A stretch of DNA of 12,600 nt from a virus: UHGV virus genome UHGV-0240756, one strand, 5' to 3'. Made by a program: the position numbers. Below, piece by piece: positions 9,001 to 12,600 of this stretch. The stretch's first letter is position 1. Every line of letters begins with the position of its first letter.

Positions 9001-12000
9001 AGTCCATGCGGTAGTAAATCTGCTTCTTGTCGAAAATCCCTAACTCATTGATTTTTTCGGCAACGCAAAAATGCGCTCTCCGGAAATCTTCAGAGCAATG
9101 GCAATTTTTCAGCGCCCTCAATACGTCCGCATGACGCTTACCAAACGCCTTAGCGATCTGAAAAGAGTCTGTTATTGGTTCGCCATCTGCCGCTGTTACC
9201 AGTTGGCGAAAATCAATACCGTCAACAATCGTCGGATAGTTCATCGCGTTTTACCTTTCAGAAAATTGAGCCTGTCTCACAGAAAAGCCGCCCCGAGATG
9301 GTCGCCACCATATACGGCAGTTCTCAGGCTCAACTTTCTGAAAGGCTCGGGGATGTGATATGCGCGTGAGATGCGCGGTGAAATTCAGATATGAAAAAGC
9401 CAGCGATTAAGCTGGCTCTGTTAATTCAGGCACTGAGTGCGGATATAGTCCTGTGCCCCTTCCAGCTGCTTCTGCATCAGCATCAACCGCTCTCTGAGGG
9501 TGAAATAATCCCGTTCAGCGGTGTCTGCCAGTCGGGGGCCGGTTGCATTATCCACGCCGGAGGTGCCGGTGGCTTCACGCACGGTACCGGAGCAGGTGGC
9601 GTTGATCCGCAGGCGCTTACGACCAGCGGCAACATCAGCACGCAGAGTTTCATTTTCAGCTCTCGCATCGGCTAATTCCCTTGAGTATCTGGCATCAAGC
9701 GCAGCAACATCACGCTGGCGCTGCTGCATGTCAGTAATGGTTGCGTTTGCCAGCTCCAGCTCTCTGGCTTTTTTATCGCGCTGCGCTTTGTAGGTGATGG
9801 CGTTATCACGGTAATGGTCTGTTGCCAGCCACAGCGCACCACAGACCACCAGCAGAATAACGGTAAACGCGGAAAGCATTCGGTTTATGCTCACCCCACC
9901 AGCCCTGCTGAAGTCAACGCCATCCAGGTTATGGAAAGAAAAAGAGCAACCAGCATTAGTGAAAATGAAATACCGACGATTACACAAAGGCCCTTCGCCA
10001 GCATTATGAGTTTGTCTGACATCTTTACCTCTTAATAGCAGTAATTAACCGGGCAACCACCCATAAAAACGGAATCAGCCAGACCAGCAAAAATTTCCAG
10101 TCCATTTTTATCATCTTCATGCTGCGGTAGCTCTCCATGCAGCAAGCAGACCAGCAATCCACTGAACACCTTTTGGGGTGAATTTAACCTGCGTAAAAGC
10201 ATGACCATTGCCCGCCTCGCCCGTTTTCACGCTAAACCGCCCCGCATCCAGGTGATACGAGTAAGGCGTCATTTTTCCAGCGAGGCGATACATTATTCCG
10301 TTCTCCAACAAAAACAGCCGGAAATCGGTTTCTTTGATACCGAGTAACTTAGCAACTTCCCGGAATCCCATCAGACCAGATGCTTCAACATAGTTATCAA
10401 CAAATTCAGCCTTCGGCGCTGCTATTGCCAGTTGATTTTCCAGCACTGCTTTCTGTTCAGCCAGTTTTGCCGCAAATCGCAACGCCTCAGGTAAAGTCCG
10501 GGGGATCTGAATACCATGCATCGCTTTGAGTCTTGCCAGCACAGAACGACGAACGGCCTTTGACTCCCTCATGCCAACGAGCATCATCTGGTCAAAATCC
10601 AGATCATAGTATGCCGTTCTTGTCTGGTTATTGTTTAACCGGAATTTTTTTCCGGTTCCATCAAGCTCTAGCTCATCCTCAATTTTTGCAAGAAACTTAC
10701 GCGGTTCATGAGGGACTTCTCCGGCTTCTGCCCGGGCTGGATTAATAATGTTATTCAGAAAATCCAGACTACTCATGGATATTTCATGATCGACAGAAAT
10801 CATCTCTTTCATGGTTGATTCCTTTTAGTGATGAACCCTGCGCACAGGAATAACCAGCCCAAAGAGGGTTAACCAGACCACTGCCGGTTATCCACCAGGG
10901 CTCATCCTGAAAGGTTCTTTGGTTTATTTACGCTTGTGCGAAGCGCAGAAATGACAAAGGCACCATTACGGTGCCTCTGCGTGAAATAATCTGCCTAACT
11001 TTATTCACTTACATTTTGCCAGTTCGCAGGATTTCGTGTTATCCGCCCGCGCTGGCCAACGTCATTTTTCAGCAAAATATTCTGCTTATCTGTCGATTCC
11101 CCAGCACGCCAGAGCGCTCTCCTGGTCACGACGGGATACCTGACCATAACAGTTATTTGAGCGAATACGGCAGTCCCTGCCACCGTCCTTAATCCACCAG
11201 CGAATCGCCTCACACGCTCCCCTGCGATCGCCTGCATTAATTCGTTTATAAAACGTCGACGGGAAACACTTACCGGGACCAATGTTATACGGACAGAATG
11301 ACGCGATCCCCGCTTTCTGGGGTTCGGTCAGCGGCACTCTGATGTTTTTCTCCACCCACGCCAGCGCTTTATCACGCTCAATGGCGTTAACCTGGTCGCA
11401 TTTTTCCTTCGACAACTTCATGCCCGGAACGACAGGTTTGCCATCCACCACCGTGGCACCCCGGCAGATGGTCCATATACCAGAACCATCACGGTATGCT
11501 GTGGTGTGGTTACCTTCTTTTTCATCCAGAAACTGGTCGAGAATGTCAGGCGCAGATGCGCCTGCAGTAATCAGCGCCAGAATGGCAGCCGACAGGCCGT
11601 ATCTGATTTTTGCGTTCATGGATATTTATCAGGATTTATCGGTTCCGAATCCCTGGATATGTTAAGTCTTCAGCCCGCCAGTGGTGGGCACTGGCGTAAA
11701 CTCAACAATGCGAGATGGCTGCCTCGCAAAGATAATCAAAGCAATGGATGCACTAAGTAAAAATAACGCTGTGTCAGATTACCTGATCGCCGAAATGGAA
11801 CATCTAATTAAAGAAATACCAAAGACAGTTGCTCGTGATGATAAAAGATTCCTCAAGGCTGCTGAAGATGCTCTTTCAACAGTGAAGCGCAGCTTAGATG
11901 CGCCGCGCGATCAAGAATAGTTTCTTTCATTTCATCTGCTGCAAGCACCTCATTTTTTGTTGGGGTGCTTTTTTTCAATTCAGCGATATAGCACTCCAGT

Positions 12001-12600
12001 TTTTCAATGCGTGATTCAATATCATCGTTTTCTGACCGCAATGCCGTCGGTGGCGTCTTCAGAGAACCAGTAATTATTCCCGGTAGTTTTCCTCTGTAGG
12101 TTATCAACACATCCTGCGCCTCTAAAATTATGGGGCGCTTTTCCGGCGACTGCTCATCCCCTTCACATAACCCGGCAGCAATATCCATGAAAAACTGCTT
12201 CGCCTGCTTTTTCGCCTCAGCTTCGTAAAATTCCAGCGTGGCACCTTCAGTACGGTCAAGACTAATCGCCACATATGGCGACAACAACGACGGCTGCCCG
12301 GCAATTTCCAGTGCCACAGTAACAGTAATCTTATCCGGGTAATTATTTATCCCTTTAACAACCAGTTCGTATTGTTTATTCATCGTCTACTCTCCACGCG
12401 CCGCCTTACGCCGGTCTTCTTTAATTTTGAAATACAGGTTCGTCAGATATGTCAGCAGACCAAACAGCAGACTCCCCAGCACGCCTATTGCCGCCCACTG
12501 AGACGGGGAAACCCTGTCCAGCAACTGCAGGAACCAGTAGCCCGTTCCCACCGCTGACGTGGTGTATGACACACCTGTTGTGATTTTTTCCATCTGGTAC

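Follow-up and report, generated by a model that had tools for sequence, protein, structure and literature searches.

In the virus genome UHGV-0240756, the stretch of 12,600 nucleotides (nt) analyzed here (the window) ends in a set of lysis genes in which the holin gene and the endolysin gene are not neighbors. Between them lie a gene for a protein of 176 amino acids (aa), a 233-nt gap and a small open reading frame (ORF) on the opposite strand, and the endolysin gene begins without a Shine-Dalgarno (SD) sequence. The question raised by this locus is what the intervening DNA is and whether its oddities have a common origin. The answer that we consider likely is that the segment is a mosaic of two parts, a late gene of the ydfR family and an opposite-strand moron cassette from which the start of the cargo gene has been deleted. 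The features on which this reading is built are as follows.

12387..12593, minus strand: S21-type class II (pin)holin gene, 68-aa form (Pfam PF04971, 113 bits)
12395..12390, minus strand: SD sequence of ydfR, GGAGAG, within the final holin codons (direct reading of the sequence)
11853..12383, minus strand: ydfR-family gene, 176 aa (PF07041)
11943-11977, plus strand: intrinsic terminator, 10-bp stem AAGCACCTCA/TGGGGTGCTT followed by T7 (terminator scan)
11727..11920, plus strand: remnant of the moron gene, codons 28-91 and stop (protein alignment with the 87-91-aa forms)
11727..11735, no strand assigned: deletion scar, where one copy of the direct repeat CAAAGATAA (9 bp) remains (aligned with E. 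coli G1/2, locus L005)
11622..11735, plus strand: conserved moron leader, i.e., a promoter-like region and a structured 5' untranslated region (UTR) (nhmmer, 57-sequence alignment)
11086..11619, minus strand: R21-type lysozyme gene, product with a Gly/Ala-rich N-terminus (Pfam PF00959, 87 bits)

In the proposed history a YdfR/DUF1327 gene of the late operon would follow the pinholin gene, with its SD within the holin 3' end. The opposite strand would have received, precisely at the junction of ydfR and the endolysin gene, a moron cassette of ~360 bp (about 11622-11980), made up of the conserved leader, one small member of the 91-aa cargo family and the intrinsic terminator. Such a cassette would account for the trough in GC content, the 233-nt gap and the convergent overlapping ORF, for the SD-less endolysin start (served by ATGA in the compact arrangement of E. 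coli K-12) and for the last ~42 residues of YdfR. In the lineage of the window, a 100-bp deletion between 9-bp direct repeats has taken the SD, the ATG and 27 codons of the cargo. The anatomy, the homologies and this deletion can be read from the sequences; transcription of the cassette, the function of YdfR and the present mode of endolysin translation are inferred.

The ydfR gene and its place among the lysis genes

The 176-aa protein had been described in the initial annotation as carrying no assignable motif, with membership of DUF1327/YdfR offered as a suggestion. The suggestion was right and the description was not, as a Pfam profile search matched residues 1-112 to DUF1327 (PF07041) with 136.3 bits (cut-off 25; E 4.3e-40), and the same gene is named 'YdfR family protein' by RefSeq. 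A match to a well-characterized lysis family, the outcome named as counting against the initial annotation, was found in none of Pfam, NCBIfam and PADLOC, nor did these hold a match to a defense family. By its profile match the protein is thus a YdfR/DUF1327 member and neither an orphan nor a characterized lysis protein. The family is narrow, as its members form just 60 clusters (50% identity) within a set of 1.84 billion representative proteins, and consists of a common N-terminal domain followed by mosaic, divergent tails, with lengths from 103 to 329 aa; short forms of 103-118 aa are common. The regions of the window protein can be listed as follows.

Residues 1-76: DUF1327 core
Residues 77-112: conserved linker
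Residues 113-134: helix, common to other long YdfR forms in the family alignment
Residues ~135-176: antisense of the cassette

AlphaFold2 (AF2) models residues 5-76 as three strands and a long helix (predicted local distance difference test, pLDDT, 75-90), residues 75-115 with low confidence and residues 116-172 as a helical hairpin (pLDDT about 70). The protein has a pI of 5.0 and no transmembrane (TM) segment (maximum 19-residue Kyte-Doolittle value 1.05). Being acidic and without a TM segment, it is therefore not a holin, antiholin, endolysin or spanin; it is probably cytoplasmic and would not seem to be an effector of membrane or wall lysis. YdfR of K-12 binds residues 1-597 of RNase E, as found by two-hybrid assay and co-purification, and co-purifies with RNA, with residues 1-72 as the RNase E interaction surface (PMC13232886). 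By analogy, RNA and/or the catalytic half of RNase E might be ligands of the window protein.

The tight coupling of the 176-aa gene to the holin gene, noted earlier, can be read directly from the sequence. The holin stop codon (12389..12387) is followed by 3 nt and then by the ydfR ATG (12383..12381), and the spacer between the SD GGAGAG and this ATG is 6 nt. In the identical prophage the holin gene is labeled by RefSeq as a 216-nt 'class II holin'. The 71-aa holin start of the RefSeq copies in identical prophages falls just past the end of the window (12593-12600), for which reason an S21-like dual start is not readable here.

The impression that the segment from about 11700 to 12380 is more AT-rich than the head module agrees with calculation. 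Its GC content is 0.443, the minimum among all 681-nt windows (mean 0.545, standard deviation 0.043), compared with 0.570 for the head and terminase side (1-8600), so that composition is not uniform. The contrast is nevertheless less local than had been claimed, as the whole of 8601-12600 reaches only 0.491. The minimum proper, 0.413, lies at 11700-11980 and coincides with the antisense cassette; the ydfR N-domain has 0.470, and the endolysin and holin genes have 0.536 each. Separate acquisition of AT-rich DNA is supported, but the acquired unit is not the 176-aa gene together with the ORF, as was first thought; it is the plus-strand moron cassette, at about 11622-11980.

The lysozyme encoded downstream is likely, from its sequence features, a signal-arrest-release (SAR) endolysin. 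No SD-like purine run is present in the 20 nt before its ATG (CCUGAUAAAUAUCC-AUG), which confirms that the gene lacks a clear SD, and comparison with the Qin prophage of K-12 traces this lack to the insert. In Qin the cassette is absent and ydfR and rrrQ overlap by 4 nt (ATGA), while the spacing between ydfR and the endolysin gene is 50 nt in Stx2a_1447 and 233 nt in the window, the endolysin ATG of which is ~5-10 nt away from the left edge of the cassette. The 9 nt before this ATG (AUAAAUAUC) are identical in K-12 Qin and the window. Together with the ATGA overlap of K-12, this means that the SD-less start fits a gene once served by stop-start coupling, and the comparison fits a cassette that would have broken the coupling between ydfR and the endolysin gene. 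In a minimum free energy fold the endolysin start region is unpaired and A/U-rich, and SD-independent initiation of the endolysin is plausible from this model.

A further observation concerns a stretch of 12 nt in the late mRNA: ydfR codons 64-67 (12180-12191) match the complement of the endolysin start region (11615-11626) without a mismatch. For this duplex an energy of -20.7 kcal/mol is predicted, a value reached by 0 of 200 codon shuffles. The pairing is present with the MNKQ/MKKK allele of ydfR and absent with the MTQN allele that carries the same cassette. With such mixed evidence, the complementarity could represent a long-range translational coupling or could have arisen by chance.

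The moron gene remnant, the terminator and the YdfR tail

Read mechanically, the plus-strand ORF extends over 11681..11920 (79 aa from a GTG, 70 aa from the ATG at 11708) and overlaps the 3' end of ydfR convergently by 68 nt. The convergent ORF of 70-79 aa in the initial annotation is thereby confirmed, and it belongs to a real gene family, of which the canonical product is 87-91 aa long (MSEENSKENTALFDRIFTLELQVGFLLPKIIKAMDAL...). Relative to E. coli G1/2, exactly 100 bp have been lost from the window between two copies of CAAAGATAA. This stretch had carried the SD (AAGGA) of the 91-aa gene as well as its ATG and codons 1-27, and what is left (11681/11708..11920) is codons 28-91 fused to leader sequence, with no SD. 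Since SD, ATG and 27 codons are gone, the cargo of the window is most likely a pseudogene; from this alignment the window copy of the moron gene is probably dead, with its leader and its terminator intact.

It might be argued that the ORF is an accidental open frame, antisense to ydfR and to intergenic DNA, that has been mis-called repeatedly. It has no Pfam family, its PHROG family is of unknown function, PADLOC and NCBIfam hold no match to the 91-aa protein, the window copy has no SD, and the 79-aa remnant is omitted from the RefSeq annotation of the identical prophage. Against this, a profile search found homologs of 85-101 aa in four other genera, Citrobacter, Salmonella (273 contigs), Enterobacter and Serratia, with 51-71% identity at the protein level, each a lone gene opposite in strand to its neighbors in a tail, terminase or lysis region, and phage CharmingMan carries an 88-aa homolog in the same range of protein identity (72.7% nucleotide identity) that is convergent with a glycosyltransferase gene. 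These genes have no ydfR opposite to them. The family also has an SD, and among eight DNA variants the 20 variable sites outside the overlap are distributed 7/2/11 on codon positions 1/2/3, i.e., with few changes at position 2, and a 12-nt indel is in frame. With its own covarying terminator in addition (see below), the idea of an accidental frame is largely refuted and hardly credible any longer, and the plus-strand family (85-101 aa, five enterobacterial genera) is, by these comparisons, genuine.

The terminator begins 23 nt past the stop of the moron ORF and is embedded in ydfR codons 136-147. Its RNA folds with -18.9 kcal/mol (z = -4.2). In CharmingMan, where it lies in intergenic DNA, the hairpin is retained, and two of its pairs differ in a compensatory manner (G-C and T-A, each in place of A-T). 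A second kind of terminator was seen at the other edge of many cassette copies (left flank of L033, L034, L037 and others), where an A-run and a GC hairpin read as an intrinsic terminator of the late strand; the ES18 record annotates such a left-edge 'terminator' at L285:1485-1506. Those cassettes are therefore bracketed by outward-facing terminators. The window cassette has no left terminator, and the endolysin gene abuts the leader.

The position of the terminator within ydfR bears on the origin of the YdfR tail. From about codon 135 on, ydfR is the antisense of the moron terminator and of the cargo 3' end, and the homology of the cassette with CharmingMan stops near 11980. By this alignment the moron cassette, read on its antisense strand, encodes YdfR residues ~135-176, and the protein has these last ~42 residues because the ydfR frame runs through the cassette antisense to the first stop. 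In every contig examined, a 176-aa YdfR is paired with an ORF of 87-91 aa and a 68-nt overlap. The 211-aa YdfR of PhiR5_1 has a 35-aa tail (EEKRRDEQFAAFYDYC...) that is the antisense of the GC-rich hairpin and 3' end of another cargo. When 150 family proteins were used in tblastn searches for a remnant of a longer ydfR in the gap, no minus-strand match was obtained in 11560-11900.

The alternative is that the C-terminal 64 residues of YdfR form a selected functional domain, perhaps a coiled coil as the initial annotation had it, and that the overlap with the moron is secondary. The AF2 hairpin at 116-172, the recurrence of the 176-aa length with N-domains as divergent as 55% identity and the presence of residues 113-134 in other long YdfR forms are in agreement with such a domain. 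The constant length, however, follows the presence of the same cassette, forms of only 103-118 aa are common, and in CharmingMan the DNA corresponding to residues ~135-176 is the terminator and 3' end of the opposite gene with no ydfR there; the PhiR5_1 tail is likewise the antisense of a different cargo. We therefore regard a selected tail domain as unlikely. What stands of the coiled-coil proposal is a predicted helix with modest confidence (residues 116-138, pLDDT about 70) that includes the IESRIEKLECYIAELKK stretch. The tail need not be a dedicated coiled-coil domain because its last ~42 residues are antisense to the cassette 3' end and terminator.

The mosaic tail also explains an annotation. 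PGAP/RefSeq calls ydfR a pseudogene ('missing C-terminus') and annotates its first 114 codons only (L004:2943-3284, L005:2043-2384). The 531-nt frame is open in reality, despite this call, which reflects the mosaic tail and not a truncation.

The leader shared with other morons

Between the endolysin start and the ORF lie ~115 nt that proved to belong to the cassette. With a seed of seven sequences from five genera, nhmmer matched the window at 11615-11735 (E 7e-27), and the cargo homologs of the five genera and of CharmingMan are all headed by the same leader of ~115-130 nt. Its elements in the window are the following.

11658-11663, plus strand: -10-like TATGTT
11670-11677, plus strand: invariant TCAGCCCG
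11677-11683/11689-11695, plus strand: hairpin P2
11710-11714/11723-11727, plus strand: stem P3, GCGAG/CTCGC
11717-11721, plus strand: GGCTG, complementary to CAGCC at 11671-11675 (P1)

In the alignment of 57 sequences, TAnnnT is invariant (57/57) ~7 nt before TCAGCCCG. P2 is 98.7% paired, four of its seven pairs are compensatory, and one has a U-G majority, which fits the plus-strand RNA only. The P1 elements CAGCC and GGCUG are both invariant and complementary. P3, in which an SD-like sequence faces an anti-SD-like one, is 89% paired and encloses GGCUG, so that a pseudoknot of P1 with P3 is possible. Over the whole structure, 91.7% of the cells are paired, compared with 28.6-45.2% when the partners are slid by 1-3 columns.

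Two pattern scans of IMG/VR and the other collected loci gave at least 103 distinct leader copies (intact examples are L005:1516-1645, L034:2867-2998 and, in HK022, L284:1501-1631). An ORF of at least 45 aa starts within tens of nt after 98 of the 103, and these ORFs fall into at least 18 families that are unrelated by BLASTP. Large ORFs of the opposite strand stand on both sides in 41 of the 60 copies analyzed for flanking genes. The leader is present in HK022 (before gp23), HK633, mEp213, mEp043, ES18 (before gp25), SPN3UB and others, and two of the genes that it heads, HK022 gp23 and ES18 gp25, carry the annotation 'moron'. No function is known for the cargos apart from DUF1883, an aspartyl-protease-like protein and a PD-(D/E)xK/NucC-like nuclease. 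The last is a 268-aa protein encoded from about position 3854 of L286 onward (DUF6602; PADLOC PD_DExK, E 3e-26), and this match suggests that some leader-driven cargos may be defense effectors. In other phages the slot of the window ORF holds plus-strand ORFs of 86 and 104 aa, in PhiR5_1 (L001:3940-4050) and Stx2-86 (L002:2749-3063), headed by the first ~80 nt of the same leader. A 'DUF1823' label of the PhiR5_1 ORF is unsupported (Pfam E 0.023, below the cut-off), and a likeness of some cargo proteins to DUF1327, seen by eye, is not backed by Pfam.

Could the conserved ~115 nt be the translational leader or a regulatory region of the endolysin gene itself? Its first 70-96 nt are kept upstream of the endolysin gene in phages with other plus-strand ORFs or with none, as this would predict. 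The distribution of the element already contradicts it, as copies of the element are also found in tail, terminase and other regions that have no endolysin gene in the vicinity, each time immediately 5' of a plus-strand cargo ORF, and none stands before K-12 rrrQ; the G-U pairs, too, fit the plus-strand RNA only. An endolysin leader is thus very unlikely, and on these comparisons the ~115 nt form the leader of the moron itself.

A DUF1327 gene lies convergent just past the cargo in 16 of 77 leader copies (L080, L097, L112, ES18 and the window, 11853-12383, among them). Cargo families and contexts (lysis cassette, tail cluster) vary among these copies, and in the ES18 tail cluster (L285 1635-2187) gene 24 matches PF07041 at 31 bits. 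Judged from these loci the link between DUF1327 and the leader is recurrent and not obligatory, because most leader copies have no such partner and K-12 ydfR has no cassette. The recurrence lends some comparative support to the earlier proposal that the convergent pair could be antisense-regulated. In a working module of this kind the remnant (from the ATG at 11708 or at 11744) or its transcript would modulate expression of ydfR and the endolysin gene, or the reverse. The recurrence extends over several cargo families, leader and terminator of the window are intact, antisense transcription from the leader is possible on that account, and the deletion variant is found in many genomes. At the protein level the proposal is unlikely to hold here as the cargo start has been deleted, i.e., the SD, the ATG and the most conserved N-terminal segment of the moron protein (ELFDRIFTLELQVGF). 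As in addition 61 of the 77 leader copies are without a DUF1327 partner, and K-12 ydfR is without the cassette, we consider a working antisense module improbable, somewhat more so than a selected YdfR tail.

Beyond the window, it is tempting to speculate that the leader is an undescribed structured promoter/5'-UTR 'socket', possibly a recombination handle, for at least 18 cargos that are antisense in late operons of enterobacterial temperate phages, with DUF1327 genes as a recurrent convergent partner. We advance this tentatively, with less confidence than the mosaic origin of the segment. Rfam gave no match at E <= 1 over the leader, in the window and in five loci with intact copies, and full-text literature searches gave neither a match to leader sequence strings nor a description of a shared moron leader. 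A scan of genome contigs with a 16-base gapped pattern was swamped by chance (0 of 120 loci matched the leader hidden Markov model) and is uninformative, and the taxonomic breadth therefore rests on protein matches and phage records. If the proposal is true, all these morons share one regulatory input, e.g., an RNA-binding regulator or protection of the 5' end from RNase E, and the binding of YdfR to RNase E and RNA might be no coincidence.

Returning to the mosaic of a ydfR gene and a moron cassette, several points weigh against it. First, a consensus scan finds no sigma-70 promoter in the leader, and we infer transcription of the cassette only from the invariant TAnnnT and the RNA covariation downstream of it. 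Second, the deleted variant is present at >=97% identity in at least 15 complete E. coli genomes, and in view of this persistence the remnant or the leader RNA may still have some function. Third, the ancestral arrangement, compact or cassette-bearing, is deduced from comparison, and substitution patterns in the ydfR tail are uninformative, speaking neither for nor against selection on it. Fourth, with regard to YdfR function, the K-12 protein is only ~44% identical to the window protein, over roughly the first 75 residues, and few transcripts were altered when K-12 YdfR was overexpressed (PMC13232886).

Most of what is found here is of known kinds, namely a YdfR-family late gene and a degenerate moron; the shared structured moron leader and the reading of ydfR into the cassette appear to be new. 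The missing SD of the endolysin gene and the odd tail of YdfR would be side effects of the insertion. The locus also demonstrates an annotation error, by which RefSeq makes ydfR a C-terminally incomplete pseudogene and skips the moron. If one leader drives many unrelated cargos, it provides a sequence handle for lysogeny-expressed accessory genes in prophages and points to a single regulatory mechanism common to all of them.

Known systems and the remainder of the window

YdfR of K-12 Qin resembles the window protein in its slot between an S21-type holin gene and an R21-type lysozyme gene, in its N-terminal domain and in the tight spacing to the holin gene. It differs in being 103 aa long and overlapping rrrQ, whereas the window protein has 176 aa and a helical tail and ends 233 nt from the endolysin gene. 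Binding to RNase E and RNA is reported for the K-12 protein only (PMC13232886). The criteria for morons are those of Juhala et al. (2000) for HK97 and HK022, taken here from their summary in PMC3594210. Like morons, the window cassette is DNA added between two genes that adjoin each other in relatives; it runs counter to the late operon, its GC content differs (0.413 compared with 0.536 in the endolysin gene and in the holin gene), it carries a terminator of its own, and its leader stands before HK022 gp23 and ES18 gp25. Unlike them it has a truncated cargo, with no intact cargo gene, and a neighboring late gene that reads 128 nt into it. As to a promoter of its own, the consensus scan of the window leader is negative and the TAnnnT is invariant in all 57 aligned copies.

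Two other systems share single traits with the cassette. The bor genes of lambda and of Stx2 phage 86 are also antisense to the late transcript and within or beside the lysis cassette, but they are located after Rz, encode a lipoprotein and have no sequence relation to the window cassette or its leader. The anti-sRNA (small RNA) pairs AsxR and AgvB at the PR' moron site of prophages (Tree et al., 2014; PMC4104026) likewise consist of convergent small transcription units and occupy conserved sites of moron insertion in lambdoid prophages; they differ in lying downstream of PR'/stx and upstream of the lysis genes and in being sRNAs of 51-60 nt instead of a leader and an ORF.

The minus strand is the coding strand of all genes of the window, which are arranged from right to left as follows.

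First three, minus strand: S21-type holin gene, 176-aa gene, R21-type lysozyme gene
Then leftward, minus strand: Ant/KilAC gene, Rz, Rha, HNH gene, small and large terminase genes
Leftmost, minus strand: protease-capsid fusion gene, portal gene, head-completion genes

A prophage of E. coli PM4-5 is 100% identical to the window across 11600-12400, and of 5426 complete E. coli genomes 3031 have related sequence, as do 369 phage records, the majority from Shiga toxin (Stx)-converting phages. In the 645-aa ORF at 3386-5323 one frame encodes both a prohead protease domain (Peptidase_S78) and a major capsid domain, which would make it a protease-capsid fusion. An Ant/KilAC antirepressor-like gene (10117-10812), preceded by a 273-nt gap (10813-11085), sits between the endolysin gene and Rz. 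The small genes at this site differ in the otherwise identical PM4-5 prophage, and the site is therefore another mosaic joint.

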